Of a DNA stretch of 64,000 nucleotides, positions 12,544 through 40,961 are shown one piece after another (positions within the stretch are counted from its first letter, which is position 1; each line of letters begins with the position of its first letter). Under the pieces are notes generated by a model. It saw only the letters and a list, made by a program, of their open reading frames with translations. It made no database searches and was not told where the DNA came from. The position numbers and the translations under genes are program-made. The stretch is from Alphaproteobacteria bacterium. GTDB taxonomy: Bacteria; Pseudomonadota; Alphaproteobacteria; UBA828. The stretch spans positions 18,738-82,737 of the forward strand of contig JAJDUK010000041.1 of assembly GCA_022826665.1 (NCBI GenBank). The letters are read 5' to 3'.

Positions 12544-12549
12544 CCGTCG

Positions 12550-12929
12550 CCGGCAGCGACCGAATTCCCCCGCTCTTCGAGGGGGGTCGACACGAAGCGG
12601 GCGGCGGTGGCCCGGGCGTAAGCGATGGCGTTTCCATCTGAGCGGGCGCGGCCATGCGGGCTGCGAGAGTGCCCACGAAGACATCGTCCGCGCCGTGCGC
12701 GGAAACCACGGGCACGGGGTGGCCTGCGTGATGCCGCGCCTTCCCCGGCGATCGCGATGGACGAAGCCGTCAGCGCCCAGGGTGATAATCATTTCCCCGC
12801 TTAAGCCGCCGCAAGCCCGTTCCGCTGCGTCGAACGCGTCTTCGACTCCGTAGATCGGAACCTCGAGCAACGGCTCTGTCTCGATGCGATCGACGATGAG
12901 GAGGTCCACCAGATGCGCCACTTCTCGAC
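12550..12929 (-). pseudogene. PfkB/ribokinase-family sugar kinase remnant (C-terminal part, at least two frameshifts, 5' end lost)
   Basis: Three minus-strand frames give successive PfkB segments: HLVDLLIVDRIETEPLLEVPIYGVEDAFDAAE...MIITLGADG; VPVVSAHGADDVFVGTLAARMA (GAGD anion-hole motif changed to GADD); AIAYARATAARFVSTPLEER. Confidence 0.75.
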
Positions 12930-12957
12930 TGTTGTTTGGAGTGGAAAATCGCCCCCC
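12930..12957. mobile_element. Possible isolated IS terminal inverted repeat (IS21-like)
   Basis: TGTTGTTTGGAGTGGAAAATCGCCCCCC starts exactly where PfkB similarity ends and resembles the recalled IS21-family end pattern TGT-N12-AAAAT-GACCC. Confidence 0.35.
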
Positions 12958-12960
12958 AAT

Positions 12961-13180
12961 TGACAGCCTGAAGACGGAGAACACGCGGCTGAAAAGGCTC
13001 CTGGCCAATGCGATGCTGGACAACGCTGCGCTGAAGGATCTGTTGGGAAAGGGCTGAGGACGCCCCGGTGCAGGCGGAAGCGGTGCCGTGGCCGCGCGTA
13101 GCGCCATTGAGCGAAGCACCCGCTCCTGGCGTGCGAACGCCAGCGCGTTGCTCGACATGCGGGTTGGACGCCGATCGGTG
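12961..13180 (+). mobile_element. Degenerate IS3-family (IS407 group) transposase fragment: orfA end and decayed orfB start
   Basis: 12962-13057 encodes DSLKTENTRLKRLLANAMLDNAALKDLLGKG*, the typical IS3 orfA C-terminus; the downstream sequence has only traces of orfB. Confidence 0.8.
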
Positions 13181-13269
13181 ACGCAATGTTCTGATTCACT
13201 TCGATTCTGAGGGGTCGGACGACGACACCGAACGGTACTGGAGAGCAGCAGCGAGCTGGAGACCAAATG

Positions 13270-13365
13270 GCTACCATGCCGTGAATTCTCGCGGCAAATT
13301 GAGGGGCACCATTTCTAAAAAATCATAAATAATCAATATGAATCAATATCTTATGATAAATGAGG
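13270..13365. mobile_element. AT-rich integrative-element end (att-like) abutting the tRNA-Ser 3' end
   Basis: Sharp GC drop; tandem AATCAATAT(G/C) 10-mers at 13331 and 13341; TGGTGCCCCTCAATTTGCCGC on the minus strand resembling integrase arm-type sites. No integrase gene is present. Confidence 0.5.
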
Positions 13366-13455
13366 TGGCGGAGGGGGTGGGATTCGAACCCACGGTACGC
13401 TCACACGTACAACGGTTTTCGAGACCGCCCCGTTCGACCACTCCGGCACCCCTCC
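13366..13455 (-). tRNA. tRNA-Ser (anticodon CGA)
   Basis: Minus strand GGAGGGGTGCCGGAGTGGTCGAACGGGGCGGTCTCGAAAACCGTTGTACGTGTGAGCGTACCGTGGGTTCGAATCCCACCCCCTCCGCCA: 90 nt, long variable arm, T-loop GGTTCGAATCC, encoded CCA. Confidence 0.97.
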
Positions 13456-13490
13456 GCGGTCCGCCGCCCGATGGGCAGCGCGGCCTCTAT

Positions 13491-14363
13491 CTACGCCTGC
13501 CGGGCGCCCTCGGCAACCGCCGCGGCCGCCACGCTCCGCTCGTAGCCCGCGAAATCCTCGGTGCCGAGCACGTGGCGCTCCATCCAGGCCGTGAAGGTCT
13601 CGCGCGACCGCGCGATCCCGTCCCAGGCTTCGTAGAACGTGTTGTCCCGCTTGTAGTAGCCGAGCGCGTAGGAGGGCCTGGCGCCGCCGGGCGCAGGCGA
13701 GACCGCGCTCACCACCCAGTGCGGCAGGTGCACCGCGCCGGGCCTGGGCTCCAACTCGTCCACGACCTCTTCCACCGTGACGAGCACCGTCTTGCTCGCA
13801 AGCGCCACCTCCTTCTGCACGCCGGAGATGCCCCAGAGCATGACGTTGCCCTTGCGGTCGGCCTGCTGGGCGTGAATCACCGCGATGTCGGGGCAGATGG
13901 CGGGGCTCGCCGCGAGCTTTTCGCCGGTGAAAGGGCAGGTGATGAACTTGATGATCGGGTTGTGCGCCGGCAGGTCCGAGCCGACATAGCCCCGGATCAC
14001 CGAGAAGGGCAGCCCGCTCGCGCCCGCGACATAGGCATTGGCGAGGTCGGCGTGGCTCCGCTCTTCGATCTCGAGCGGCCGGGGCCAGCCCTTCTCCACC
14101 GCGTCGCGGAAGCGGTGCAGCGAGCCCACCCCCGGATTGCCGCCCCAGGAGAACACCAGCTTCCTGACGCAGCCCATGCCGATGAGCTGGTCGTAGATCA
14201 GGTCCGGCGTCATCCGCACCGCCGTGAGGTCCTTCAGGCCCGCGCGGATCACGGCGTGGCCCGCGGCGTGGGGGATCAGGTGGGTGAAGCCTTCCATGGC
14301 GACAGTATCGCCGTCGTGGATGAGCGACGACACCGCGTCCGCGAGCGGGACGATCTCGGTCAT
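13491..14363 (-). CDS. Family I CoA-transferase alpha subunit (GctA/CatI/PcaI-like)
   Basis: DGDTVAMEGFTHLIPHAAGH, RMTPDLIYDQLIGMG, FSWGGNPGVGSLHR, IHAQQADRKGN. Start chosen at ATG 14363. Confidence 0.9.
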   Translation of the reverse strand: MTEIVPLADAVSSLIHDGDTVAMEGFTHLIPHAAGHAVIRAGLKDLTAVRMTPDLIYDQLIGMGCVRKLVFSWGGNPGVGSLHRFRDAVEKGWPRPLEIEERSHADLANAYVAGASGLPFSVIRGYVGSDLPAHNPIIKFITCPFTGEKLAASPAICPDIAVIHAQQADRKGNVMLWGISGVQKEVALASKTVLVTVEEVVDELEPRPGAVHLPHWVVSAVSPAPGGARPSYALGYYKRDNTFYEAWDGIARSRETFTAWMERHVLGTEDFAGYERSVAAAAVAEGARQA

Positions 14364-14422
14364 ACGGGGGACGTGCTGGGACGCGAACGTGCGGGTAAGG
14401 GTGAGAGGACGGCGCCGGGCGG

Positions 14423-15415
14423 CTAGAAGCGCACGGGCACGATCGGCGCCTCGCCCTTGGCAATCATCTCGGGAATCGCCGGCGAGGCGTTCTCCCACAC
14501 CAGCAGCATCGAGCGCTTGGGCGAGAAGCCCTGGTGGCGGATGTCGGCCGGCATGCAGGCGACATCACCGGCCCGCATGGTCACCACCGCGCGGGGGTCG
14601 CCCGAATGCTTGTCCTTCACCTCCCAGACGATCTCGTCCGAGAGCTGGATGAACCACTCCACCCGGTCGTTGCCATGCTCCACCGGCAGGATGAACTCCT
14701 CCGACGTCGGGCAGAACAGGCTGTCCTTCACCACGGAGCAGACGGACGGGTTCCAGGTCACGTCCGAGCGCGAGAGATAGGCGAAGAGGTTGAAGGACTG
14801 CACCTCGTTCTCGAAGCCGGGCTCGATCTCGACCTCTGGCTCGTCCTGCTCCACGTCGGCGAACATGCGGTTGACCGGGTAGCCGCTCTCGTCGGTCCTG
14901 AGCGGCGCATCGTCGGGCAAGCCCACCATGCGCTTCGCCGTGACCCGGACGCGGCCGAGGGCCTCGGGGTTGCGCCCGCTCTTGCGACCGAAGGGCTGCG
15001 CCGTCTCCTGCGGTGCCGTGAAGGGGTCGTAGCCGGCGTTGGTCCAGTCGTCGAGCATCGCCTGGAAAGTCGCCCTCAGGTCGTCGGAATCGATCGTCTC
15101 CGAATAGTCGCGGTCGTTGTCGCGGTAGGCGTCGTTGAAGCGCCCGATGTAGAGCTCGACCTGGCCGTAGAGGTTGGTGGTGCCGAACACGTCGTCGAAG
15201 TTGAGGGTGCCGTAGAAGAAGTTCCACGCCACTTCGCGCACCAGCGCGCGCAGGAAGGCGTCCACCGGCATGAGATGCGAGCCGTCCGGCCAGGTGACGT
15301 AAGCGAAATACTCGTCCCGGCGGAAGCCGAAGCCGCCGATCTGGAAGGTGCGATAGCCGGTGTAGTTGTCGGGATCGGAGGCCGAGTAGGCGGCCTGTGC
15401 GGTCTGTGCGGACAT
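14423..15415 (-). CDS. hqdB: Hydroquinone 1,2-dioxygenase large subunit (HqdB/HapD/PnpC2 type, cupin)
   Basis: GYRTFQIGGFGFRRDEYF, FLRALVREVAWNFFYG, SDVTWNPSVCSV, FCPTSEEFILPVEHGNDRVEWF, MPADIRHQG, LLVWEN, as recalled for this family. Confidence 0.88.
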   Translation of the reverse strand: MSAQTAQAAYSASDPDNYTGYRTFQIGGFGFRRDEYFAYVTWPDGSHLMPVDAFLRALVREVAWNFFYGTLNFDDVFGTTNLYGQVELYIGRFNDAYRDNDRDYSETIDSDDLRATFQAMLDDWTNAGYDPFTAPQETAQPFGRKSGRNPEALGRVRVTAKRMVGLPDDAPLRTDESGYPVNRMFADVEQDEPEVEIEPGFENEVQSFNLFAYLSRSDVTWNPSVCSVVKDSLFCPTSEEFILPVEHGNDRVEWFIQLSDEIVWEVKDKHSGDPRAVVTMRAGDVACMPADIRHQGFSPKRSMLLVWENASPAIPEMIAKGEAPIVPVRF

Positions 15416-15420
15416 CGCTC

Positions 15421-15918
15421 TCACTCCTCGCCGGTCTGGCAGATCTCGGCCCAGCGCTCGATGGTAAGCGGGCCGTCGATCGTCTGGAACAGGACCACGC
15501 TCGGCGCCTCGGCCGAGAAGCGGTAGGCGGCTTGTGCCGGCAGCAGGGTCAGGTGGCCGCGTCCGGCCCGGATACGCCCCATGCGGGGGCCGTCGGGCTC
15601 GGCGTCGAGCGCGTGCGCGCCGTCACCCTCCGGCGCGTCGCCGCCATGCTTCATCAGCTCGACCTCGATCCGGCCGTCGAGGCAGAGCGCGAACTCGTCG
15701 TGGCCCGCCGTGAACCAGGGCGAGGCGCCTTCGACGCGCATGATCTCGATCGCGTACTCCAGGTTCTTGGCGACGCACACGCGCTCGAACGGCGCCGACT
15801 TGCCGGCCACCTCGAACACGTTGGAGAAGACGTAGTTGCGCGGATCGTCGTTGATGATGTGGACCCCGCCCTTGCGGTAGTCGTCGAGCGATCCGAGCTC
15901 GGTCGTGTAGTCGGACAT
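15421..15918 (-). CDS. hqdA: Hydroquinone 1,2-dioxygenase small subunit (HqdA/HapC/PnpC1 type)
   Basis: GSLDDYRKGGVHIINDDPRNYVFSNVFEVA, VAKNLEY, HDEFALCLDG, VLFQTIDG, WAEICQT; directly upstream of the large subunit. Confidence 0.88.
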   Translation of the reverse strand: MSDYTTELGSLDDYRKGGVHIINDDPRNYVFSNVFEVAGKSAPFERVCVAKNLEYAIEIMRVEGASPWFTAGHDEFALCLDGRIEVELMKHGGDAPEGDGAHALDAEPDGPRMGRIRAGRGHLTLLPAQAAYRFSAEAPSVVLFQTIDGPLTIERWAEICQTGEE

Positions 15919-16047
15919 GGGCCCCGTCCTCTGCCCTCCGTTCAGCTTGCGGCGGCTACTCTATCCCATACCGCCGCGACTGCGGAACCTGAACAAGTTC
16001 CGGTGTCGCCCGTGCCGCGGGGTCCAGGCGCGGCAAGAGTTATGCGA

Positions 16048-17193
16048 CTACACGCGCAGCCCCGCCTGCCGCATCAGCGGCATCACCTTCTCGCCGAAGT
16101 ATTTCAACTCTTCGTAATAGTCGAGCCACGAGAGGATGAATCCTTCGACGCCGATGTCGGCGATGGCGAGCATCTTTTCGACCACCTGCTCCGGCGTGCC
16201 GACCAGCGGGTAGCCGCCCCAGCCGGCGATGAAGCGCTCGCCCATGGCGCGAAGCTGCTCCTTGTTCGAACCGTAGGAGTAGTTCTCGCCGAGCATCAGC
16301 TCGATGATCGTGTTGGTCGCGCCCCAGTCGCCCTCGTCGACGATGCGCCGGTAGAGCGCCTGGGCCTCGGCTTCGGTATCGCGGCAGCACACCAGGCCGT
16401 AGCTCATCACGCCGCAGCGGCGCCCGTGCTTCGCGGCGCGGGCGTGAATGTCCGTCACGATCTCTTGCGCCTTCTCCATCGTGGTGATCGAGAGGAAATT
16501 GAAATCGGCGAGCTTCGCGGAGAACTCGCGGCCGGCGGGCGAGGAGCCCGCGTTGATCACCACCGGATGAGGCCGCTGGATCGGCTTCGGCGCCAGGAAA
16601 CCCTGGTTGACCCTGTAGTACACGCCCTCGTGGTCGAAATCGTCCTCGGCCCAGAGCCGCTTCACGATGGAGAGCCATTCGTCGGCCATGACGTAGCGCT
16701 CGTCGTGGTCAAGCTGGTCCATGCCGAACATCTCGATCTCCGGCTTGAACCAGCCGCAGACGACGTTGAGGCCGAAGCGCCCGCTCGAAATGTTGTCGAT
16801 GGTGGCGGCCTGCTTGGCAGCGAAGATGGGATGCACCGTCGGCACGTGCGAGGTGGCAAAGACCATGATGTCCGTCGTGTGGCAGGCCATCGCGGCGGCC
16901 CAGGTGTAGACCTCCAGGTTGTTGCCGTTGAACTGCGTCGTTCCGCCGAAGTGCCGCCACCGCCCGACCGGGACCAGCAACTCGAAGCCGAGCCGATCGG
17001 CGAGCTGGCTGATCTTCACGCTGTGCTCGTAGGTGGGCTCGAAGGTCGTCTCGGCGTGCGTGATCGTGCAGCCGTTGGAGCAGTTCTGCCCGAAGACGCC
17101 GAGCTTGAAGCGGTTCTCGTTGAAGACCGGCACGTTGCGCGCGCGCCATTCGGCTGCGTCGTCGGGGTGCATGGTGGATACGTCGGGGGCCAT
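16048..17193 (-). CDS. LLM-class (luciferase-like) flavin-dependent monooxygenase
   Basis: FKLGVFGQNC, ADRLGFELLVPVGRWRHFGG, HPIFAAKQAATIDNISSGRFGLNVVCGW, NAGSSPAGREFSAK. Start at ATG 17193. Confidence 0.9.
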   Translation of the reverse strand: MAPDVSTMHPDDAAEWRARNVPVFNENRFKLGVFGQNCSNGCTITHAETTFEPTYEHSVKISQLADRLGFELLVPVGRWRHFGGTTQFNGNNLEVYTWAAAMACHTTDIMVFATSHVPTVHPIFAAKQAATIDNISSGRFGLNVVCGWFKPEIEMFGMDQLDHDERYVMADEWLSIVKRLWAEDDFDHEGVYYRVNQGFLAPKPIQRPHPVVINAGSSPAGREFSAKLADFNFLSITTMEKAQEIVTDIHARAAKHGRRCGVMSYGLVCCRDTEAEAQALYRRIVDEGDWGATNTIIELMLGENYSYGSNKEQLRAMGERFIAGWGGYPLVGTPEQVVEKMLAIADIGVEGFILSWLDYYEELKYFGEKVMPLMRQAGLRV

Positions 17194-17391
17194 CGTTTCG
17201 TGCGTCCTGCCTTGCGGAGAGGAGATTTGACGGGGGCGGGAGAGCTTGTGTTCGGGCAGCGGGCGCCCCTCAGGCTGGAGAAGCCGAGAGGCGCACGCCG
17301 CCGCTAACCTACAACTTCGGGCGGGACGGTTCACCCGCCCCCGCGCGCGGACTATTCTCCGGCGACCGGACCCCTTGGCGACATCGGCACC

Positions 17392-18978
17392 ATGCAACCG
17401 CCCGACGCGAAGACCATCCCTGACCTGCTCGACGAGCTGGCGGCACGCTACCCCGACCAGGAGGCGCTGGTCGGCGGCGAGACCCGGCTCAGCTATCGCG
17501 GGCTGCGGGACGAAGTGCGCCGGCTCGCCAAGGGGCTCTTCGCGCTGGGCGTCCGCCGGGGCGACAAGGTCGGCCTGCTGATGGGCAACCGGCCCGAGTG
17601 GCTCCTTGCTGATTTCGCCATCACGCTCCTTGGCGGCACCATGGTCGCCATCAACACTTGGGCGACGGCGCGCGAGCTTGCCCATGTGCTCAGCCATTCT
17701 GATACCAAGTTCCTGATCACGGTCGACCGCTTCCTCAAGTACGACTACCTGGAGACCCTGGACACGCTCGTGCGCGACGGCGATGCGCTTGCGGGCGTGC
17801 GAGAGATCGTGCGCGTCGGCGGCCCGGCCGATCACCCGGCGCGGCGCTTCGAGACCCTGTGGGAGCTCGCGGAGACCGTCGACGATGCGGCGATCGAGAG
17901 CGCCCAGGCCGCCGTGCGCGGAGACGACGTGGCCTACCTGCTCTACACATCGGGCACCACGGCGCTACCCAAGGGCGTGCAACTGCAGCACTACGCCCTG
18001 ATCGAGAACATGTGGAATATCGGCGAGCGCCTGCACCTCCGCCCCGGAGACCGGCTCTGGCTCGCGGTCTCGCTGTTCTGGGGCCTCGGCTGCGAGAACG
18101 CGCTCTTCGCGGTCATGACCCACGCCGGCTGCATCGTGCTGCAGGAGCACTTCGACGCCGGCGAGGCGCTGCGCCTGATCGAGGCCGAGCGCTGCACCGT
18201 CTTCTACGGCACGCCCAACATGGTGCACGCGCTGGAGCAGCACCCGGAGCGGCCGGCGCGCGACATCTCTTCGCTGCGTGCGGGCGCCACCCTGGGCTCG
18301 CGGGAACAGATCAAGCGGCTGATCGACCTCGGCGTCACCGAGACCTGCAACATCTACGGGCTCACCGAGACCTACGGTAATTCCAACGTCACCGACGTGG
18401 ACGACCCGCTGGAGAAGCGGCTCAACACGGTCGGCCGGGCGCTGCCGGGCGTCGATATCGTGATCGCCGATCCCGAAAGCCTCGCGCCGCTGCCGTCCGG
18501 CTCGGTCGGCGAGATCCTGGTCAAGGGTTACGTCACCTGCGGCTACTACAAGGACCCGGCGCTGGACGAGCGGAGCTTTCACGACGGCTACTTCCGCACC
18601 GGCGACCTCGGGCTGCTCGATGAAGATGGCTTCCTGCACTTCCGCGGGCGGCTCAAGGAGATGATCAAGACCGGCGGCATCAACGTCTCGCCGGCGGAGG
18701 TCGAGGCGGTGCTGACCGAAGTGCCGGAGGTCGAGCTCGCCTACGTGATCGGCCTGCCGGACCCGGAGCGCGACCAGCGGGTCGCCGCCATCATCGTGCC
18801 GCGCGACGGCGCCCAGCCGACGGCCGATGCGCTCACCGCTCATTGTTCCGCCCACCTCGCCGCCTACAAGGTGCCGCGGGAAATTCGCTTCGTCACCGCC
18901 GGAGCGCTGCCCCTCACCACCACCGGCAAGCTCCAAAAAGCCCGCCTCGTCGAGTTCTTCGACACGGACCCGGCGTAG
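17392..18978 (+). CDS. Acyl-CoA synthetase / AMP-binding CoA ligase
   Basis: YTSGTTALPKG, YGLTE, RTGDLG, GRLKEMIKTGG, C-terminal TGKL. Confidence 0.93.
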   Translation: MQPPDAKTIPDLLDELAARYPDQEALVGGETRLSYRGLRDEVRRLAKGLFALGVRRGDKVGLLMGNRPEWLLADFAITLLGGTMVAINTWATARELAHVLSHSDTKFLITVDRFLKYDYLETLDTLVRDGDALAGVREIVRVGGPADHPARRFETLWELAETVDDAAIESAQAAVRGDDVAYLLYTSGTTALPKGVQLQHYALIENMWNIGERLHLRPGDRLWLAVSLFWGLGCENALFAVMTHAGCIVLQEHFDAGEALRLIEAERCTVFYGTPNMVHALEQHPERPARDISSLRAGATLGSREQIKRLIDLGVTETCNIYGLTETYGNSNVTDVDDPLEKRLNTVGRALPGVDIVIADPESLAPLPSGSVGEILVKGYVTCGYYKDPALDERSFHDGYFRTGDLGLLDEDGFLHFRGRLKEMIKTGGINVSPAEVEAVLTEVPEVELAYVIGLPDPERDQRVAAIIVPRDGAQPTADALTAHCSAHLAAYKVPREIRFVTAGALPLTTTGKLQKARLVEFFDTDPA

Positions 18979-20156
18979 TGTCGGAGGCGCTGCGCGACAA
19001 GGCGGCGATCGTCGGCATTGGCGCCAGCAGGTTCGGCCGCCACCTGCCCGAGAGCCAGCTCGCGCTCGCCACCCAGGCCTTCAAGGCGGCGCTCGCAGAT
19101 GCTGGCCTCGAGCGGAGCGACATCGATGGCCTCTCCATCCACATCGGCTGGCCGCTCGGCGTCGACTACGACCAGGTCGCCCAGGCCTTCGGCCTCGAAA
19201 TCGACTTCGTCAACCAGGCCTGGGCCCACGGCCGCTTCGTCACCGGCAGCCTGCAAACGGCGGCGATGGCGGTGGCAACCGGCATGGCGAACGTCGTCGC
19301 CTGCGTGAACGTGCTGAGCTTCACCCGCGAGCGCGATATCCTCGGCGGGCCGCACGACTTCGAGGGCTACCGCGAGACCGGCGGCACCCACGCGGAGACG
19401 CCGCATTACGGGCTGACCGCACCGGCCGGCGGCGCCGCGCTGGCCATGCAGCGCTACATGGCGCTCTACGGCGCGACCAGCGCTGAGCTTGCCGCAGTGC
19501 CGGTGGCGCTGCGTGCCCACGCGCGACTCAACCCGAAGGCAGTGATGCGAAAGCCCATGAGCGTCGCCGACCACCAGGCCTCGCGCATGGTGGTGGACCC
19601 GCTCCGGCTCTTCGATTGCTGCATCGTGAGCGATGGCGCTGCCGTGGTGCTGGTGGCGGCGGCCGAACGCGCCCGCGACCTCAGGCAACGCCCGGTCTTC
19701 ATCGCCGGGATGCAGGGGATGGCGGCGGGCCGCAACGAGTTCATCTTCGCGCCGCCCGGTTTGGGCATCAATCAGCAGAGCGGGGAGCGCCCGGACCGGA
19801 CCGCCGAACGCGATCTCGCAGTCTACCGTTCGGCCGACATCCCGCGCGAGGCGATCCAGGGCCTCTACACCTACGATGCCTTCTCGCCACTGGTGCTGTT
19901 CGTGCTCGAGCGCTTCGGCTTCTGTGCGCCGGGCGAGGCGGCGGCCTTCGTGCAGGAGGGCCGCATCGGCCCCGGCGGCACGCTGCCGGTCAACACCTCC
20001 GGCGGTCTTCTCTCGGAGGCTCATGTCGCCGGCTGGAACTCGCTCTGCGAGATGGTGCGCCAGTTGCGGGGCGAGGCCGGGCCGGGCCAGATCGCCGACG
20101 CTCGCGCCCTGCAATGGGCGACGACCTGGGGCGATTCCGTGATCCTGCGGAACTGA
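18978..20156 (+). CDS. Thiolase-fold protein, SCP-x/Ltp2-like (lacks nucleophilic Cys; probable aldolase type)
   Basis: GTG start overlaps the ligase stop; AAIVGIG, PLRLFDCCIVSDGA, YTYDAF, PVNTSGGLLSEAH. Confidence 0.88.
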   Translation: MSEALRDKAAIVGIGASRFGRHLPESQLALATQAFKAALADAGLERSDIDGLSIHIGWPLGVDYDQVAQAFGLEIDFVNQAWAHGRFVTGSLQTAAMAVATGMANVVACVNVLSFTRERDILGGPHDFEGYRETGGTHAETPHYGLTAPAGGAALAMQRYMALYGATSAELAAVPVALRAHARLNPKAVMRKPMSVADHQASRMVVDPLRLFDCCIVSDGAAVVLVAAAERARDLRQRPVFIAGMQGMAAGRNEFIFAPPGLGINQQSGERPDRTAERDLAVYRSADIPREAIQGLYTYDAFSPLVLFVLERFGFCAPGEAAAFVQEGRIGPGGTLPVNTSGGLLSEAHVAGWNSLCEMVRQLRGEAGPGQIADARALQWATTWGDSVILRN

Positions 20157-20174
20157 CGGGACCGGGGCCGGACA

Positions 20175-20588
20175 ATGAGCGCCTACGAGAAGCCCACGCC
20201 GCGCATCAACCCGGACAACGCGCGCTTCTGGGAAAGCGCGCACGAGGGCGTGCTCCGCCTGCCCCGCTGCGGCGATTGCGCGGCGTGGCACTGGCCGCCC
20301 GGCCCGGTCTGCCCCGCCTGTTTCTCCGAGCGGATCGGCTGGGAGGAGGCGCAGGGCCACGGCACGGTCTCCACCTGGACGGTGGTCCACCAGGACTGGT
20401 TCCCCGCGTTCAGGGCCGATATCCCCTACGCGGTGGCGCAGATCGAGCTTGCGGAGGGCGTGCGGCTGACCGCGAACATCGTCGACTGCCCAGCGGATGA
20501 GCTGCGGGTGGGGCTCCCGGTCGAGGTGGTGTTCGACCGCGTCACGGAGACGCTCACGCTGCCGCGCTTCCGCCCGCACCGGGATTGA
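20175..20588 (+). CDS. DUF35 Zn-ribbon/OB-fold protein (ChsH2/BbsA-like thiolase partner)
   Basis: CGDC...HWPPGPVCPAC Zn ribbon; GTVSTWTVVH; PYAVAQIELAEGVRL. Confidence 0.92.
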   Translation: MSAYEKPTPRINPDNARFWESAHEGVLRLPRCGDCAAWHWPPGPVCPACFSERIGWEEAQGHGTVSTWTVVHQDWFPAFRADIPYAVAQIELAEGVRLTANIVDCPADELRVGLPVEVVFDRVTETLTLPRFRPHRD

Positions 20589-20611
20589 GCGGCAGACGGA
20601 AGGAGAGGGTC

Positions 20612-21379
20612 GTGGCCAACATCCTGTGCGAGCGCGAGGACGACTGCCTGCGCATCCGCCTTAGCAGCGGTACCACCAACGCGCTGACGACGGCGGTTAT
20701 CCAAGACCTCGCGCAGGCGGTCGCGGACGCCAACCGCGACGCCCGCGGCGCCATGCTCTGCGGCGGCGAAAAATTCTTCTGCAACGGCCTGGACCTGGAC
20801 TGGGCGCTCGCGTGCTCGCGCGCCGAGATCAGCGAGATGTTTCACGCGCTGGCGGGGCTGATCCTCGCCATGCTGGAATCGCCGCTCCCCATCGTGGGCG
20901 CCATCAAGGGCCACGCCATCGGCGGCGGCATGGCCATCTATCTGGCCTGCGACTATCGCTACGCCGCCACGGGACGCGTGCTGATCGGCAAGCCCGAAAT
21001 CCTGCTGGGCGTGCCCAACCCCTATTACGGCGACCAACTCCTGCGCTTCGTTGCCGGCGATTTCGTCGCTTCCGACATGATCTACACCGGCAAGCTCGTC
21101 CGCGCCGACGAGGGCCGCGCCCTCAACCTCGTGCACGAAACCGGGCCCAAGGAAGACATCGAGAAGACGGCGTGGGGGCGCCTGCTGTTCCTGCGCGACC
21201 TCGCGCCGGAGGCCTTCGTGGAATCCAAGCGCATGAGGCTCGGCAAGTTCTGCGCCGACTTGCGGGAGCAGATGCCCACCCGCATCGCCCGCCAGGTCGA
21301 GATTTGGTCCGGCGACGAGGCGCAGGCTCGCCTCAGCGCCGGCGCCGAAAGGCTCAAGCGTCGGCGGCGCGAGGACTGA
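20612..21379 (+). CDS. Enoyl-CoA hydratase/isomerase (crotonase) family
   Basis: FFCNGLDL oxyanion loop, GHAIGGG, KPEILLG. GTG 20612 preferred because AGGAGAGG precedes it. Confidence 0.88.
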   Translation: MANILCEREDDCLRIRLSSGTTNALTTAVIQDLAQAVADANRDARGAMLCGGEKFFCNGLDLDWALACSRAEISEMFHALAGLILAMLESPLPIVGAIKGHAIGGGMAIYLACDYRYAATGRVLIGKPEILLGVPNPYYGDQLLRFVAGDFVASDMIYTGKLVRADEGRALNLVHETGPKEDIEKTAWGRLLFLRDLAPEAFVESKRMRLGKFCADLREQMPTRIARQVEIWSGDEAQARLSAGAERLKRRRRED

Positions 21380-21445
21380 TCGTCCGCACCTCTCACGGCA
21401 TTCGCGATCCGGTTCCGCGTCCCACGTCCGATAAACAATTTTCAT

Positions 21446-21605
21446 GCGGGACACGCCGGGATTAGGCGGGATGGGTGGGAAGTCACGGGGACAGGCGGGG
21501 ATGACGGCGGTGACTGGGGGCGGCGCGCTCTCACATGGCATAGCGCGATCCTGACGCGCTCGCCGCCCGCCTTGCATCGCACCATGGTCCGGGGAATCGC
21601 GGGGA
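21446..21605. repeat. Helically phased GGGA repeat array / G-quadruplex-like tract
   Basis: GGGA at 21448, 21458, 21468, 21477, 21488, 21498 and again at 21592 and 21602, in a non-coding gap between convergent genes. Confidence 0.6.
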
Positions 21606-21632
21606 CGCTCCGGCCCCGGCGGACAATCCGAG

Positions 21633-22733
21633 CTAACCGATCAGGCGTAGTTCGCGCGGGAACGACGTGAGCGAGCGCGCACCATCCTCGGTGATGGTCA
21701 CGTCGTCCTCGATGCGGACCCCGACATCGCCGGCGCCGTAGAGGCCGGGCTCGATGGTGATGACGAAGCCGGGCTCCAGCCGCTGGCGATTGCCGACCAT
21801 GACCTGCGGCGCCTCGTGCACGTCGAGCCCGAGGCCGTGGCCGGTCTTGTGCACGATCATGTCGGCGAAGGGCGAGGCGCGCAGCACGTCGGTCACGGCG
21901 GTATCCAGATCGTGCGCGGTGACGCCGGGTGCGGCCATGCGACGCCCCAGCGCGTTCGCCGCGCGCACGGTCTCGTAGACCTCCGCATGGCGGTCGTCCA
22001 CATGCTCGCAGAAGAAGGTGCGCGTGATGTCCGCGCTGAACCCGTCGATCTTCGCGCCGAAATCGATCAGCAGCGCATCGCCGGGCCTGAGCGGCGCATC
22101 GTCCGGCGTGCCGTGCGGGTTCGCCGCCTTCGCGCCCGCCAGCACGATGGGCTCGAAGCCGAACCCGTCCGAGCCATGCGCCAGCATCCGGGTCTTCAAC
22201 AGCGCGGCGATGGCCCGCTCGGTATCGCCGGCCCGGACCTCGTCGAGGGTTTCGCCCAGCGCGAGCTGGCTGATCTCGATGGCGCGGGAGAGGCTCGCGA
22301 TCTCGTCCTCGTCCTTGGCGATGCGAAGCGGCTGCAGCGCCGCGTCGGCATTCCGCACCTCGCCGTTCCCCATGTGCCGGCGCAGCGCATCGTACTCGAA
22401 CATGCGCATCCGCCCGCCTTCGACGCCGAGGGCCGCAGCCCCCAGCGCGCGCAGCGCGGCCTCGAAAGCGGCCTCGAAGCCGTCGCTGTCCTGCCAGTAG
22501 AAGGTCTCGGCGTCGGGGAAGGTGGTCGACCACTTGAGGCGCTCAAGCTCGGGCATGATGGCGAGCATCTGGGCCTTCCCGGTAACGAAGAGCAGCGTCG
22601 GGCGCTCCATCAGCGGGAAGTCGAGGCCAGTGAGGTATTGAAAGCTCGGCCCCGGCACGAAAGCGGCAGCATCCAGGCCCGCACCCCGGATCAGCGCGGC
22701 CGCGCGGTCGCGGCGCAGGTCGTGGCCCGTCAT
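21633..22733 (-). CDS. M24 family Xaa-Pro (di/amino)peptidase
   Basis: All five metal ligands visible: IDFGA, SADITRT, TGHGLG, TIEPG, RIEDD; creatinase-type N-domain. Confidence 0.93.
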   Translation of the reverse strand: MTGHDLRRDRAAALIRGAGLDAAAFVPGPSFQYLTGLDFPLMERPTLLFVTGKAQMLAIMPELERLKWSTTFPDAETFYWQDSDGFEAAFEAALRALGAAALGVEGGRMRMFEYDALRRHMGNGEVRNADAALQPLRIAKDEDEIASLSRAIEISQLALGETLDEVRAGDTERAIAALLKTRMLAHGSDGFGFEPIVLAGAKAANPHGTPDDAPLRPGDALLIDFGAKIDGFSADITRTFFCEHVDDRHAEVYETVRAANALGRRMAAPGVTAHDLDTAVTDVLRASPFADMIVHKTGHGLGLDVHEAPQVMVGNRQRLEPGFVITIEPGLYGAGDVGVRIEDDVTITEDGARSLTSFPRELRLIG

Positions 22734-23461
22734 AGCGCGCTGAGCCCCTGGCCGAAGCGCTCCAGCCGCATCTCCCCGCCGAAGCGGGGCTCTAGCGAGC
22801 GGACGATGATCGCCAAGTCCGCCAGAATCATGCGCTCGATCGCGCGGTCGCCCGCGGCAGCGTCCCCGGCGAGCACCGCGTCGACCAGCGCCTTCATGCG
22901 ACCGACCGAGGCGCGGCGCTCCTCGCTGGTCGCATTGGGATAGTAATGGAGCACCCGCATGCGCATACCGGCATCGATCACCTCATCGAAGAACTTGATC
23001 AGGAAGATATTGCGGGACAGCCCCGCCAGATGGCGAAGCGCCACCAGCTCGCTCTTGAGCGACGCCTCCCAGTCATCGTCCTCCACCGCCTGGACGAAGC
23101 GGTGCACGTGATCGTTCAACGGCGCCGCCTCGGCCCGGCCGGAGAGCGCCGCCGCCCGTGCCATGGCTCGGGAGATGATCAGCGCGGTATCCAGATAGTC
23201 GCCGGTGTTATCGAGCGAGAAGTGCGCCACGATGCTGGTCCGGTTCGGCAGGAACTGGACCAGCCGTTCGCCCGCGAGCAGGAGCAGGGCCTCCCGGATG
23301 GGTGTGCGCGAGACCTCGAAGCGGGCGGCTAGGGCGGTCTCGTCCAGAGCGGAGCCCGGCGCGATCCGCACCCAGAGGATTTCCTCGCGCAGCACGTCGT
23401 ACACCTGCAGAGCGCCGCGGCGCCCGCGCTTTCGGGGGCGTGCCTTGATTTCCGCTGCCAT
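22730..23461 (-). CDS. GntR family (FCD) transcriptional regulator
   Basis: wHTH LDETALAARFEVSRTPIREALLLL plus a C-terminal helical FCD-like domain; ATGA overlap with the peptidase. Confidence 0.92.
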   Translation of the reverse strand: MAAEIKARPRKRGRRGALQVYDVLREEILWVRIAPGSALDETALAARFEVSRTPIREALLLLAGERLVQFLPNRTSIVAHFSLDNTGDYLDTALIISRAMARAAALSGRAEAAPLNDHVHRFVQAVEDDDWEASLKSELVALRHLAGLSRNIFLIKFFDEVIDAGMRMRVLHYYPNATSEERRASVGRMKALVDAVLAGDAAAGDRAIERMILADLAIIVRSLEPRFGGEMRLERFGQGLSAL

Positions 23462-23501
23462 GCGCCGTGGCTCAGACTGCTAAAATTCTCGCCTTGAACG
23501 A

Positions 23502-23527
23502 TTGCATTATGTTTGCATAATAATATG
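23502..23527. promoter_or_regulatory. Candidate GntR operator in the divergent promoter region
   Basis: AT-rich TTGCATTATGTTTGCATAATAATATG with inverted repeat ATTATG-N4-CATAAT (23506-23521) and TTGCAT direct repeats 11 bp apart. Confidence 0.5.
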
Positions 23528-23588
23528 CTACGGGTGAGTCAAGGTGATAAACTACGTGTGGGTCAAGACGCAGAAGGGAGACATCGAC

Positions 23589-24587
23589 ATGACGCGATCC
23601 ATCACGCTGCTGCTTGGGGCCGTAGCCCTTGCCTTCGCCGTTGCACTGGCCACGCCGGCAATGGCGCAATCGAAGAGGGTCGCCTTCTTCGCCGCCTCTT
23701 CGCAGAACGGCTTCAACCAGGCGACGTACGAAGGTGTCGAGGAAATGGCCATCAAGCTCGGGTACGAGGCCGAGATCTATGACGGCAAGTTCGACGCCAT
23801 CCACCAGTACAGCCAGATCGAGGACGTGCTCGCCAGCGGCCGCTTCGAGGGCATGATTGTGGCGCCCAACGACCCCGTCGGCATCTCCGGCGCGTTCGAG
23901 CAGGTGATCGAGGCAGGCGTGCCGATCGCTACCGTGCTCTTCCCGATCGGGCCGGACCTCACCACCCTGGAGCCGCAGGTGCCCGGCATCACGTCGACCG
24001 TCGCATCGCCGCCCGTCGACGGCGCCACCTGGCAGGCCGAGGCCGCGGCGGCGTATTGCGCGGACAAGGACCCCTGCAACGTCATCATCATCATCGGCTT
24101 CAAGACCTTCCCCTTCGACAATCTGCGGCTTGAGACCTTCGAGAAGGTTCTGGCCCAGTACCCCAACATCAAGGTGGTGGGGGTTGGCGAGGGCTGGTAT
24201 TCGCCGGATACCTCGCTGAAGGCGATGCAGGACATGCTGCAGGCGGCGCGGGACGTGCACGTGGTGCTGTCGAATGCCGACCAGCACTTGGTAGGTGCGG
24301 AGATCGCGCTGGAGGCCGAGGGCTACAACGTGGCCGACCTCTACCTCATCGGCGGCGGTGCTGCGGCGATCTCGATCGAGGCGATCCGCGAAGGGCGCTG
24401 GGATGCCACCCTTGCCTACTTCCCCAAGACCATGGGGGCGCTCGCGATGGAGCAGATCGCCAACGCCATCGAGGGCAAGCCCGTGGACAACGCCATCAAC
24501 ATGGACGTCTCGGGTCCGCTCCAGGCCATGATCGACAAGGCCATTCTCGACGCCAACCCCGACTTCAGGGGCGAGTGGGAGCAGTAA
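23589..24587 (+). CDS. Sugar-type ABC periplasmic binding protein (RbsB fold)
   Basis: Signal peptide ending AMA; AASSQNGFNQ; QYSQIEDVLASG; RBS AAGGGAG. Confidence 0.9.
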   Translation: MTRSITLLLGAVALAFAVALATPAMAQSKRVAFFAASSQNGFNQATYEGVEEMAIKLGYEAEIYDGKFDAIHQYSQIEDVLASGRFEGMIVAPNDPVGISGAFEQVIEAGVPIATVLFPIGPDLTTLEPQVPGITSTVASPPVDGATWQAEAAAAYCADKDPCNVIIIIGFKTFPFDNLRLETFEKVLAQYPNIKVVGVGEGWYSPDTSLKAMQDMLQAARDVHVVLSNADQHLVGAEIALEAEGYNVADLYLIGGGAAAISIEAIREGRWDATLAYFPKTMGALAMEQIANAIEGKPVDNAINMDVSGPLQAMIDKAILDANPDFRGEWEQ

Positions 24588-24599
24588 CCGACGTTACCC

Positions 24600-24621
24600 G
24601 CCGGGGCCTTCGGGCCCCGGC
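24600..24621 (+). other. Stable cUUCGg stem-loop after the SBP gene
   Basis: GCCGGGGCC-TTCG-GGCCCCGGC; 9 bp stem, no U-tract. Confidence 0.65.
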
Positions 24622-24648
24622 GGTCGCTTGGCGCCGGGAGGTGGTAAT

Positions 24649-26676
24649 TTGACCCGTCACTACCGGGTGTCCGCCGATATCGGCGGCACGTTTACGGATA
24701 TCGTCTATCAGGACTGTTCAACCGGCGCCTGCGGCGCTGCGAAGGTTCTTTCCACACCGGACGACCCGGCGCTTGCGGTGCTCCGGGGCATCGAGGCGGC
24801 GATCCCGACCGAAGCCGCAATCGATTTCTTCGTCCACGGCACGACGGTTGGGCTCAACGCGCTGCTCACCCGGCGGGGCGCCAAGGTGGCGCTGCTCACC
24901 ACCGAGAACTTTCGGGACATCTACACGATCCAGGGCAACGACCGCGGCGAGATCTTCTCGATCCGCTGGAACAAACCCGAGCCGCTCACGCCGCTGGAGC
25001 ACACGTTCACGGCGCGGGAGCGGATCGCGGCCACCGGCGAGGCCGTGACGCCTCTGGAGACGAGCGATCTCGACCGCCTCGTCGCTGCGGTGAAGGAGGA
25101 GGGTTTCGAGGCGATCGCCATCGCCTTCCTCTTCTCCTTCAAGAACCCCGCGCATGAGCTGGAGGCCGCCGAGTACTTGCGCGCCCGCCTGCCCGACATT
25201 CCCATCGGGCTCTCGCACCGGGTCTCGCCCGAGTGGCGGGAGTTCGAGCGGACCTCGACCGCGGTGATGGACAGCTACCTCGCGCCGGTGGTGCGGGGTT
25301 ACCTGGAGACGCTGATCGGCGGCCTCGGCGACCGCCTGCCCGAGGGCCGGGGGCTGCACGTCATGCAGTCCAACGGCGGGGTGATGACCGCGGAATCCGC
25401 CAGCGAGACGCCGCTGCAGACGCTGCTCTCGGGCCCCGTCGGTGGCGCCATTGGCGGCAGGGCGCTCTCCGCTGCGACCGGCCGGCCCAATCTCATCTGC
25501 ATCGACATGGGCGGGACCTCCTTCGACGCCAGCCTGATCATCGACGGGCTGCCCTCCGGCTCCAACCACGCCAAACTGGAGGGGCTGCCGGTGCAGATGT
25601 CGGTGGTGGATATCCACGTCATCGGCGCCGGCGGCGGCTCCATCGCGTGGGAGGAGGCGGGCGCCATGCGTGTCGGCCCCCAATCCGCCGGCTCGATGCC
25701 GGGGCCGGCCTGCTACGGGCTGGGCGGGACCGAGCCCACGGTCTCCGACGCCAACTTGGTGCTCGGCCGGCTTGACGGCGCCAACTTCTCCGGCGGGGCG
25801 ATGGCGCTGGACCGGGGCGCGGCGGGCGCGGCGCTCACGACGGTCGGCGAGACGTTCGGGCTCACGACCGAGGCCATGGCGCAGGGCGTCGTGGATGTCG
25901 TGAACGCCAAGATGGCAGATGCGATCAGGACCATTACCGTCCAGCGCGGCATCGACCCACGCGACTTCTCCCTGGTCGCCTTCGGTGGCGCCGGCCCGGC
26001 ACAGGCGGGCGCGCTCGCCGAAGAGCTGCAGATTCGCGAGGTGATCGTGCCGGTGCACCCCGGCGCGTTCTCCGCCTGGGGCATGCTGCAGACGGACGTG
26101 CGCCGCGACTACAAGGAAACGCTCTATTCCTTCTGGGACCTCATGGACCTCGCGGTCCTCGAAGCCGCGTTCGCGGGTCTCGAGGAAAACGGCCGCCAAC
26201 ACCTGCTGGCTGAGGGGATCGCCGAGGACGCCATCGCCTTCGAGCGGGCCATCGACTTCCGCTACTACGGGCAGGAATATGTCCTCACCATCCCGGTGCC
26301 CAGCGGGACCATCGACATGGATGCCGTGCGCAAGAGCTTCGATGTGGCGTACGACCGGCAGTACGGCCACTCCAGCCCGGAGAACCGCGTCGAGATGGCG
26401 AACATCCGCCTAGCCGCGCTCGGCCGGCTGGCGCGACCGGCTTCCGCGCCGCCCGCGCGCGAGGCCGCACGGCCCACGCGCGAGCGGGATGTCATCTTCG
26501 CCGGCCGGCCGCTGAAGACACCCGTCCTCGACCGCAACGGGCTCGAAATCGGCAATGCCGTGGCGGGCCCTGCGATCATCGAGGAATCGACCGCGACGAC
26601 GCTGGTGCCGCCGGGCTGGAGCGCCACGGTGATCGAGGGCGGCCACCTCTCCATGACGAAGGAGGCGGGATCATGA
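24649..26676 (+). CDS. Hydantoinase A / 5-oxoprolinase ATP-binding subunit family
   Basis: ADIGGTFTD, HGTTVGLNALL, LLSGPVGG, IDMGGTSFD, GPQSAGSMPGPACYG, FGGAGP. TTG 24649 follows GGAGG. Confidence 0.93.
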   Translation: MTRHYRVSADIGGTFTDIVYQDCSTGACGAAKVLSTPDDPALAVLRGIEAAIPTEAAIDFFVHGTTVGLNALLTRRGAKVALLTTENFRDIYTIQGNDRGEIFSIRWNKPEPLTPLEHTFTARERIAATGEAVTPLETSDLDRLVAAVKEEGFEAIAIAFLFSFKNPAHELEAAEYLRARLPDIPIGLSHRVSPEWREFERTSTAVMDSYLAPVVRGYLETLIGGLGDRLPEGRGLHVMQSNGGVMTAESASETPLQTLLSGPVGGAIGGRALSAATGRPNLICIDMGGTSFDASLIIDGLPSGSNHAKLEGLPVQMSVVDIHVIGAGGGSIAWEEAGAMRVGPQSAGSMPGPACYGLGGTEPTVSDANLVLGRLDGANFSGGAMALDRGAAGAALTTVGETFGLTTEAMAQGVVDVVNAKMADAIRTITVQRGIDPRDFSLVAFGGAGPAQAGALAEELQIREVIVPVHPGAFSAWGMLQTDVRRDYKETLYSFWDLMDLAVLEAAFAGLEENGRQHLLAEGIAEDAIAFERAIDFRYYGQEYVLTIPVPSGTIDMDAVRKSFDVAYDRQYGHSSPENRVEMANIRLAALGRLARPASAPPAREAARPTRERDVIFAGRPLKTPVLDRNGLEIGNAVAGPAIIEESTATTLVPPGWSATVIEGGHLSMTKEAGS

Positions 26677-28394: not shown

Positions 28395-28402
28395 CCACGG
28401 TT

Positions 28403-36627: not shown

Positions 36628-37377
36628 TCACCGCCTACGCGCGGCAACTAGGAACTCGGTGTTGCCGTCGCGGCCCTTGATCGGGCTTTCGACCAGACCC
36701 AGCACCGGCCAGCATTCGGCCGTGAGCCAGTCCCGGATCGTTTCGCAGACTTCTGCGTGAACCGCGGGGTCGCGGACGATACCGCCCTTGCCGACGCGCC
36801 CGCGCCCCGCCTCAAACTGCGGCTTGATCAGGGCGACGAGGCGCGCGCCGGCGGCCGCGAGTGCAAGCGGCGCCGGCAGGATCGTGCGCAGGCCGATGAA
36901 GCTCGCGTCGCAGACGATGAGGTCGACCGGCTCCGGCACCTGCTCCCGCGTGAGGTAGCGCGCGTTCGTCCGCTCCAGCACCGTGACGCGGGGCTCGCCG
37001 CGTAGGCGTGCGTCAAGCTGGCCGTAGCCAACATCGACCGCGTAGACTCGCCGCGCGCCGCGCTGACAGAGCACATCGGTGAAGCCCCCGGTGGAGGCCC
37101 CGATATCCAGCGCGATCAGCCCGCTCGGGTCGATCCCGAAATGCGTGAGCGCGTGATCCAGCTTGATGCCGCCGCGCGAGACCCAAGGGTGGTCCGCGCC
37201 CCTGACCGTAAGCGCAAGTTCGCGGTCGACCTGCATGCCGGGCTTCTCGAGCCGGCGCTCGCCGGAATACACCCGGCCCGCCAACAGCAGCGCCTGCGCC
37301 TTGGCCCTGGTCTCGGCGAGCCCGCGGGCGACCAGCAGGGTGTCGAGCCTCTCCTTGCCGGGCAGTCGGCGGCTCAG
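36628..37377 (-). CDS. tlyA: TlyA family rRNA 2'-O-methyltransferase (S4 + FtsJ domains)
   Basis: The frame continues upstream of the listed ORF as KERLDTLLVARGLAETRAKAQALLLAG; WVSRGGIKL, DIGASTGGFTD, VDVGYGQL, LIKPQFE. Probable CTG start. Confidence 0.93.
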   Translation of the reverse strand: MSRRLPGKERLDTLLVARGLAETRAKAQALLLAGRVYSGERRLEKPGMQVDRELALTVRGADHPWVSRGGIKLDHALTHFGIDPSGLIALDIGASTGGFTDVLCQRGARRVYAVDVGYGQLDARLRGEPRVTVLERTNARYLTREQVPEPVDLIVCDASFIGLRTILPAPLALAAAGARLVALIKPQFEAGRGRVGKGGIVRDPAVHAEVCETIRDWLTAECWPVLGLVESPIKGRDGNTEFLVAARRR

Positions 37378-38261: not shown

Positions 38262-38270
38262 CCGGCGCCC

Positions 38271-38519
38271 TCAGCCAGTCTCGAACGGCTCCGTGCGGGC
38301 GGCGCCGGCCGCATCGCTGTCGATCTTCTCGACGCGAAGCTCGGCCTGCCTGAGCTTCTCCTCGCAGAACGTCTTCAGCTTGACGCCGCGCTCATAAGCC
38401 GCGATGGCCGCTTCGAGGCCGGTCTCGCCGGCCTCCAGCTCGTGCACGATCCCTTCGAGCTCGCGCATCGCGCTCTCGAAGGTCTGCGCCTCGCCGTCCT
38501 TATCGCCGCTCTCGCCCAT
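38271..38519 (-). CDS. xseB: Exodeoxyribonuclease VII small subunit
   Basis: TFESAMRELEGIVHELEAGETGLEAAIAAYERG; upstream of ispA as usual. Confidence 0.93.
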   Translation of the reverse strand: MGESGDKDGEAQTFESAMRELEGIVHELEAGETGLEAAIAAYERGVKLKTFCEEKLRQAELRVEKIDSDAAGAARTEPFETG

Positions 38520-38555
38520 GGAAGGAGTCTAAGTGGTGCCCCGAGGCGCGGCAAC

Positions 38556-40851: not shown

Positions 40852-40961
40852 GACTCACCTCCCGCCGCAGGACCGCCGCGCGCCGTCCTCGGCCTTGTGG
40901 CTCTGCCGCTTACGCGCGGTACGCGACCTTTCCCGCCGCCGGCGGCCGTGTTGCGCGCGCC

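Follow-up and report, generated by a model that had tools for sequence, protein, structure and literature searches.

Two-subunit dioxygenases that open the hydroquinone ring have been described as HqdAB of Sphingomonas sp. TTNP3, PnpCD of Pseudomonas sp. WBC-3, and HapCD of P. fluorescens ACB. Thiolase-fold aldolases that work with a DUF35 partner have been described as Ltp2-ChsH2 and Sal-Shy, and luciferase-like monooxygenases (LLMs) include SfnG, RutA, and SsuD. Genes related to all three groups stand side by side at positions 13491 to 21379 of the DNA analyzed here, a 64,000-nucleotide (64-kb) stretch from an Alphaproteobacteria bacterium (assembly GCA_022826665.1, contig JAJDUK010000041.1, positions 18,738 to 82,737), which we refer to as the window. 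Four of these genes are carried on the minus strand, with the transcript order LLM, dioxygenase small subunit (hqdS), dioxygenase large subunit (hqdL), and CoA-transferase alpha. The other four run divergently on the plus strand and encode an acyl-CoA ligase, a thiolase-fold protein, a DUF35 protein, and a crotonase-superfamily protein. A first-pass annotation made from the sequence alone had described this content and layout, which are confirmed by domain and PDB matches, and had read the two arms as a single pathway that feeds hydroquinone to the dioxygenase. Our comparison with about 160 related loci (designated by L numbers) leads to a different reading, in which three modules with separate inheritance have probably come to lie next to each other in one lineage, within a high-GC alphaproteobacterial chromosome. 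The hqd block with its CoA-transferase alpha forms module 1, the LLM forms module 2, and the ligase operon forms module 3.

Distribution of the modules and their borders

The gene neighborhoods of hqd were compared in 80 species-representative genomes with HqdL relatives of 64-99% identity. The outgroup consisted of 74 species outside the clade of the window (HqdL 66-73% identical), 59 of which provided at least 5 kb of upstream sequence, and loci were scored by tblastn with the window proteins and with reference lower-pathway proteins from annotated plasmids. A homologue of the LLM, ligase, thiolase-fold protein, DUF35 protein, or crotonase was found in the hqd flanks of none of the 74 species. 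The reciprocal sample consisted of 80 metagenome loci with a thiolase-fold protein 64-94% identical to that of the window. Here, hqd and LLM were absent from the vicinity of the thiolase-fold gene in all 78 of the more distant loci, and only L088, a near-identical relative, carried them. Neither hqd nor an orthologous ligase arm was present in any of ten LLM orthologue contexts. The cluster co-occurrence of hqd, LLM, and the thiolase-fold/DUF35 pair, which the first-pass annotation had offered as a check on its pathway, therefore fails everywhere outside one narrow lineage.

DNA synteny locates the borders between the modules. Over this block, collinearity with the window is seen in L003, L004, L005, and L088. 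In L006 and L007 (86-89% nucleotide identity), it is limited to window positions 13337/13366-15977, which comprise a tRNA gene, CoA-transferase alpha, hqdL, and hqdS. The region upstream of hqdS carries a UDP-glucose dehydrogenase gene in L006 and, in L007, FtsJ and polyprenyl synthase genes whose counterpart in the window is found at 36650-38554, 20.6 kb away. Conversely, L089 (88% identity) shares only window positions 17384-29433, with similarity that begins 8 bp before the ATG of the ligase gene. In L089 (2747-11396), the ligase gene is preceded by co-oriented genes for HyuA-like, HyuB-like, and short-chain dehydrogenase/reductase (SDR) proteins, the SDR-ligase gap being 27 bp. This HyuA-HyuB-SDR-ligase layout resembles ketone-carboxylase/ligase/cleavage routes. 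The stable neighbors of the ligase operon, shared by the window and L089, lie to its right and encode M24, GntR, a binding protein, and HyuAB; hqd is not among them.

The synteny breaks in L006, L007, and L089 thus place breakpoints at the module borders. The intergenic region shared by the two arms, which had been noted as about 200 bp, indeed measures 197 bp (17194-17391) but contains one of these breakpoints, that of L089. Because co-occurrence is lacking in the 74 species and the 78 loci and sister genomes carry single modules, we conclude that the three modules were inherited separately.

Gene content and predicted function of each module

In module 1, hqdS (15421-15918, minus strand) matches 5M21_A (1.9e-60) and 4ZXA_A (4e-51), and hqdL (14423-15424, minus strand), of the HqdB/PnpD/HapD type, encodes a PnpD N-terminal domain (PF18191, 3.1e-52) and a C-terminal cupin. 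The large subunit matches 5M21_B (3.6e-157), with which it aligns over residues 19-333, and 4ZXA (8e-133). The two genes overlap by 4 nt as called, the true start of hqdL probably being the ATG at 15415, and they are adjacent in nearly all of the 80 hqd loci. The metal ligands were checked in an alignment of 21 sequences, in which H250, N252, E256, and H297 of the large subunit are invariant. The Fe(II) ligands of PnpD are His, Asn, Glu, and His, and the window residues stand six positions before their PnpD counterparts, which roughly agrees with the offset of 5-6 residues in the match to 4ZXA. The 5M21 matches and the retained metal-site residues bear out the two-subunit hydroquinone dioxygenase named in the first-pass annotation, and hqdS-hqdL is predicted to encode a two-subunit Fe(II) dioxygenase for hydroquinone or possibly hydroxyquinol.

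The last gene of the block encodes a CoA-transferase alpha of the GctA/PcaI type (13491-14363, minus strand; Pfam CoA_trans, 1.5e-21; glutaconate CoA-transferase A, 1POI_A, 2.7e-35). The first-pass annotation had listed this gene without interpreting it. The protein shares 69% identity with the subunit A encoded ahead of CoAT_B-pcaF-pcaD-pcaC-pcaB-pcaHG in Azospirillum B510. Since the same alpha subunit heads that pca operon, the window protein would belong to the 3-oxoadipate-activating step of an ordinary lower pathway. In family I CoA-transferases, the catalytic glutamate sits on the beta subunit, so that an alpha subunit alone is without it, and tblastn found no beta-subunit homologue in the 64-kb window. 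Similarly, tblastn with reference proteins found neither a 4-hydroxymuconic-semialdehyde dehydrogenase nor a maleylacetate reductase in the window, where the sole aldehyde-dehydrogenase match is a PutA domain (36%); the absence of these usual partners had been correctly noted before.

The same genes are frequent companions of hqd in the 74 outside-clade species. A semialdehyde dehydrogenase is found near hqd in 59/74 and directly downstream of hqdL in 53 of the 66 loci with enough sequence, and a maleylacetate reductase is found in 53/74. Window-like CoAT_A, CoAT_B, and pcaF are less frequent (28/74, 22/74, and 16/74, respectively). In the clade of the window, the dehydrogenase, CoA-transferase beta, and reductase are missing from the hqd block. 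The block looks like a trimmed version of a widespread hqdS-hqdL-dehydrogenase-pcaIJ-like-maleylacetate reductase operon. A separate arrangement was observed in two Ilumatobacteraceae loci, L054 and L062, where hqdL is followed by CoAT_A, CoAT_B, maleylacetate reductase, and pcaF without a semialdehyde dehydrogenase. Such a gene set would be better suited to hydroxyquinol than to hydroquinone.

All eight genes are under purifying selection (dN/dS 0.03-0.29). The open reading frames (ORFs) of hqdS, hqdL, and CoA-transferase alpha are intact in eight assemblies, and the dN/dS of the block is 0.03-0.29 (0.04-0.29 for CoA-transferase alpha) even against L006 and L007, where dS reaches 0.22-0.42. 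Based on the intact frames and these ratios, the genes of the hqd block are not decaying.

The conserved hqd block ends at a tRNA-Ser(CGA) gene (13366-13455, minus strand, predicted by ARAGORN), which starts 35 bp past the CoA-transferase alpha stop and also follows the block in L003, L004, L006, L007, and L088. Beyond the tRNA, L003 (13242-15299) and L006 (13220-15205) carry a TraG/VirD4 coupling-protein gene. The corresponding part of the window (12546-13365) was found by DNA search to contain an IS3-family transposase fragment of about 130 bp at about 12964-13094, and a 57-aa ORF at 12884-13057 has no Pfam match; L088 has only 271 bp at this place. These elements mark tRNA-Ser(CGA) as an integration hot spot. 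In L007, the sequence beyond the tRNA (13423-14001) contains a 192-aa ORF that matches the methane/phenol hydroxylase family in its C-terminal part only and is possibly a gene fragment. Taken together, module 1 would consist of hqdS-hqdL and a PcaI-like alpha subunit, ending at tRNA-Ser, and other parts of the genome would have to provide the steps that it lacks.

Module 2 consists of the LLM gene (16048-17193, minus strand), which encodes an FMN-type luciferase-like monooxygenase (Bac_luciferase, 1.6e-60; 8T0U, 2.6e-53). The protein scores 228, 185, and 130 bits against the NCBIfam models for SfnG, RutA, and SsuD, all far below the curated equivalog cut-offs (383, 498, and 518 bits, respectively). 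It appears to represent an uncharacterized FMN-dependent subfamily near these three enzymes. The subfamily is large, with members 65-87% identical across Alpha- and Gammaproteobacteria. A gene for a Mo-cofactor hydroxylase subunit of ∼780 aa stands directly upstream of the orthologues in L085/L086, L173, and L174, and this subunit and the LLM may form an unrecognized two-gene unit. These LLMs are the closest orthologues outside the clade (73-84% identity), and they are sometimes accompanied by 2OG-Fe(II) oxygenases. The orthologue in L084 has an amidase and a deacetylase for neighbors, and the contexts in Gammaproteobacteria (L168, L169, L175) contain an AIG2-like protein, acyl-CoA dehydrogenases, alpha/beta-hydrolases, and a muconolactone-isomerase-like protein. 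A thiolase and DUF35 near the orthologue in L170 were considered as a possible linkage and rejected, as the thiolase is a distant paralogue at 28% identity. The retention of 65-87% identity in contexts without hqd argues that the role of the LLM is conserved and unrelated to hydroquinone. Module 2 would be a single FMNH2-dependent enzyme of a widespread subfamily, the members of which stand with different partners in other genomes.

Module 3 is a closely packed operon on the plus strand, with a 1-nt overlap, an 18-bp gap, and a 4-nt overlap between successive genes. The AMP-forming acyl-CoA ligase (17392-18978; AMP-binding, 3.3e-80, and AMP-binding_C) reached the cut-off of no NCBIfam model, and among PDB entries it comes closest to a fatty-acyl-CoA synthase and a feruloyl-CoA synthetase (8WEU/8WEV, about 4e-62). 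The thiolase-fold gene (18978-20156) has a GTG start that overlaps the ligase stop by 1 nt, and its product matches Ltp2 (6OK1_A, 5.1e-61). It is followed by a stand-alone DUF35 protein with a zinc ribbon and OB fold (20175-20588; PF12172, 2.3e-10; PF01796, 5.9e-22) and by the crotonase-superfamily protein (20585-21379; ECH_1, 4e-30).

Alignment of the thiolase-fold protein to the 7YVY thiolase places a Phe at the position of the nucleophilic Cys, which makes thiolysis via an acyl-enzyme impossible. Ltp2 is characterized by Y294-D-H-F and Tyr344, and Sal by Y302-D-C304-Y with Gln at the 344 position (Rolfe et al., PMC12329534). The window protein has the motif YDAF. The catalytic Tyr is kept in this motif, but Ala takes the place of the third residue, which is His in Ltp2 and the essential Cys304 in Sal. 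At the Ltp2 Tyr344 position, the window protein has His. Among the orthologues, the Phe and the His are conserved in 68/68 and YDAF in 67/68. The wider family also contains a co-located paralogue with the Ltp2-like pair, YDNF and Tyr. On the basis of these residues, the protein appears to define an uncharacterized YDAF/His subfamily.

The DUF35 protein has a canonical CxxC-x10-CxxC zinc ribbon. Its gene adjoins the thiolase-fold gene in 71 of the 80 loci, the ligase being present in 33/80, and the protein is therefore the likely partner of the thiolase-fold protein. The likeness to Ltp2 named in the first-pass annotation holds for the lost Cys and the adjacent zinc-ribbon DUF35; the catalytic Tyr is kept, albeit within a different motif, and the second catalytic residue and the MaoC hydratase are not shared. 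A MaoC-type hydratase produces the 3-hydroxyacyl-CoA substrate in the Ltp2/Sal systems, and no MaoC domain was found in the window proteins scanned. In the window crotonase, GGGMA replaces the hydratase GGGxE, so that the first catalytic Glu is gone, whereas the KPE motif retains the second. For enoyl-CoA hydratase, a pair of catalytic glutamates is established in the rat enzyme (Glu144/Glu164). Loss of the first of them weakens the case for a hydration step, and a crotonase of the window type is found in only the two closest of the 80 thiolase-fold loci, L088 and L089.

In the set conserved across the wider family, a zinc alcohol dehydrogenase is flanked by two thiolase-fold/DUF35 pairs and accompanied by the ligase, a Liv-type ABC transporter, an alpha/beta-hydrolase, and an SMP30-like protein. 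Nothing in this set points to phenolic acids. This locus is seen in L091-L167 (e.g., L120 and L115), sometimes with MmgE/PrpD, and a locus on pDK3 of Rhodococcus DK17 looks related to it. As a tightly coupled four-gene operon, module 3 would most likely convert a carboxylic acid to its CoA ester and then cleave the C-C bond adjacent to the thioester by a retro-aldol reaction like that of Ltp2/Sal, in which no covalent acyl-enzyme forms. Its conserved neighbors are the downstream M24-GntR-HyuAB cluster and not hqd. Within the chemistry that we infer for them, neither module 2 nor module 3 would feed module 1.

All eight genes were confirmed as real at the coordinates given here, with GC3 of 0.86-0.93 in their frames (real genes in this window exceed 0.8) and a window G+C of 64-71%. 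Inverted repeats in the spacers appear to be coding-sequence coincidences and were set aside. The remainder of the window encodes transporters for sugars and amino acids, HyuAB, PutA, and amidases, and it carries the housekeeping genes rpsM, rpoA, rplQ, miaB, and lnt. The amidases include tandem paralogues of 477 and 475 aa (39418-42389), which adjoin a GFO/IDH/MocA oxidoreductase and a RidA-like protein. The closest genomes are metagenome-assembled genomes (MAGs) of Alphaproteobacteria and Rhodospirillales, the closest by HqdL being the 4.17-Mb MAG chromosome OZ243972.1 (L003, 99% HqdL identity); an exact-sequence look-up of the window HqdL returned nothing on record. The high GC and the Ltp2/DUF35 matches had raised an actinobacterial, steroid-type origin, which is ruled out by DNA matches that are alphaproteobacterial.

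Alternative readings of the adjacency

Several observations weigh against a mere juxtaposition. First, five assemblies (the window, L003, L004, L005, and L088) retain the full arrangement at 89-95% nucleotide identity, so that it is not ephemeral; assembly chimerism is also ruled out as its cause, since five independent assemblies share it. Second, the LLM gene lies 129 bp upstream of hqdS in the same direction, with no terminator-like site between them, and the two may be co-transcribed. The promoter/terminator scan of 13200-21700 found neither a sigma-70-like promoter nor a terminator-like site anywhere and is uninformative for a high-GC alphaproteobacterium. Third, L088 (5251-6180, minus strand) and L008 (798-1703) carry an extra crotonase with both glutamates between LLM and hqdS, at a site that corresponds to a 60-bp gap in the window (15988-16047). 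This crotonase brings CoA chemistry into the left operon and may point to a connection with the right arm. Finally, co-occurrence was judged in neighborhoods only, with flanks of ∼10 kb and many short contigs. A functional link between the modules may exist in this one lineage.

Such a link could take the form of a unified pathway recruited in this lineage, a reading that we consider rather unlikely. In this pathway, a para-hydroxylated aryl acid would be CoA-activated, its side chain would be removed by the thiolase-fold/DUF35 proteins, possibly after hydration, the resulting aryl aldehyde or ketone would be converted to hydroquinone by a Baeyer-Villiger/Dakin-type oxygenation by the LLM, and HqdSL would open the ring. 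The conserved divergent arms with their short spacer, the position of the LLM directly upstream of hqdS, and the extra crotonase all fit this scheme, as does the feruloyl-CoA synthetase among the best matches of the ligase. The proposed chemistry is also reasonable given the known flavin chemistry of the LLM fold. Enzymes of the luciferase family react with aldehydes to give flavin-peroxyhemiacetals, and the LLM fold includes Baeyer-Villiger monooxygenases, namely the camphor diketocamphane enzymes. The exchange of Cys for Phe with retention of the aldolase catalytic Tyr is likewise in line with side-chain removal (PMC12329534). Against the scheme stand the complete lack of co-occurrence outside one lineage, the occurrence of each arm alone in sister genomes with breakpoints at the borders, and LLM orthologues in unrelated contexts, which argue for a conserved substrate unrelated to hqd. 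In addition, the window crotonase is without one catalytic Glu, a flavin reductase was not found in the 64-kb window, no pathway regulator lies inside the eight-gene block, and enzymes for the ring-cleavage product are missing from the window. The earlier interpretation is therefore partly supported by the sequence comparisons, in that its gene identities hold and its single pathway is not supported.

Alternatively, the left arm alone could be the functional unit, with the ligase operon as an unrelated neighbor. Here, the LLM would directly convert a para-substituted phenol to hydroquinone or hydroxyquinol through ipso-attack on a heteroatom-linked group such as a sulfonate, sulfone, or amide/amine, and HqdSL would cleave the product. 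The nearest characterized relatives of the LLM, SfnG, SsuD, and RutA, do cleave C-S or C-N bonds, LLM and hqdS are close and co-directional, and the breakpoint in L089 falls between the LLM and the ligase arm. Nevertheless, this explanation is unlikely: the hqd blocks of L006 and L007 have no LLM, the LLM orthologues pair with the Mo-cofactor hydroxylase subunit, amidases, or alpha/beta-hydrolases and never with hqd, and the crotonase between LLM and hqdS in L088/L008 goes unexplained. We regard as decidedly unlikely the specific proposal that recent rearrangements assembled a hybrid route here, in which the side chain of a CoA-activated hydroxyaryl-alkenoic or -alkanoic acid would be shortened by a new YDAF/His type of aldolase with DUF35, the aryl carbonyl formed would become hydroquinone through a Baeyer-Villiger/Dakin-type oxidation by the LLM, and a reduced HqdSL would open the ring. 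It is very unlikely that the hqd block is a decaying remnant without a present role, left after loss of the dehydrogenase, CoA-transferase beta, and reductase beside an integration hot spot, for although three or four of the usual operon genes are gone, the alpha subunit alone is without the catalytic glutamate, and the block abuts a tRNA-Ser with an integrative and conjugative element (ICE) in L003 and L006 and the IS3 fragment in the window, its three ORFs are intact and constrained, its iron ligands are conserved, and L054 and L062 also have no adjacent dehydrogenase yet keep CoAT_A, CoAT_B, reductase, and pcaF.

If the modules were linked, the locus would provide a new way into hydroquinone degradation and show a luciferase-like monooxygenase in a new function. 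The hybrid route, if true, would place an LLM-fold enzyme in the role of HAPMO-type flavoproteins and would represent a pathway caught mid-assembly. As the evidence favors adjacency without co-inheritance, the locus is a caution against inferring a pathway from one gene neighborhood. The more solid leads are the YDAF/His subfamily of thiolase-fold proteins and the orphan subfamily of LLMs, and the former, which is large, strictly conserved, and paired with DUF35, would extend the newly recognized family of thiolase-fold aldolases beyond steroids.

Comparison with known systems

The first-pass annotation knew of no characterized cluster with this combination, and none was found in the literature searched, which contained no matching system for hqd with LLM or for an LLM Baeyer-Villiger route to hydroquinone. 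The window presents a new arrangement of known gene kinds rather than a demonstrated new system. The LLM has the same fold and subgroup as SfnG (dimethylsulfone monooxygenase, 8T0U), RutA, and SsuD, with which it aligns over nearly its full length; unlike these enzymes, it has no flavin reductase, sulfur, or pyrimidine genes nearby. In module 3, the CoA ligase, thiolase-fold, and DUF35 genes stand side by side, as in the sets that strip acyl side chains from aromatic acids, such as ipfDEF of ibuprofen degradation. A pIBU218 homologue with 38% identity, a candidate for ipfD, adjoins a CaiB-type CoA-transferase and a crotonase.

The thiolase-fold protein shares with Ltp2-ChsH2 (6OK1) and Sal-Shy (PMC12329534) the thiolase fold, the absence of a nucleophilic Cys, the YDxF Tyr, and a DUF35 partner. 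It differs in its YDAF motif, as compared to YDHF (Ltp2) and YDCY (Sal), and in the His at the Tyr344 position, which is as in true thiolases. Furthermore, the window DUF35 is a stand-alone protein, whereas DUF35 of the Ltp2/Sal type is fused to a MaoC hydratase, and unlike these systems, the window has a crotonase neighbor, no MaoC hydratase, and no steroid gene context.

For module 1, the window alpha subunit shows 69% protein and 77% DNA identity to the pca operon of Azospirillum sp. B510 (NC_013858.1), with its GctAB-type 3-oxoadipate CoA-transferase, but in contrast to that operon, the window is without a beta subunit, pcaF, or other pca genes. Compared to usual hqd loci, the window has no adjacent dehydrogenase or maleylacetate reductase, and the PcaI-like alpha gene directly follows hqdL in a block that ends at a tRNA. 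The dioxygenase resembles HqdAB of Sphingomonas sp. TTNP3 (5M21), PnpCD of Pseudomonas sp. WBC-3 (4ZXA), and HapCD of P. fluorescens ACB in that both subunits are encoded by adjacent genes. Its large subunit aligns end to end with 5M21_B, and the His/Asn/Glu/His metal-site residues are conserved in the window.

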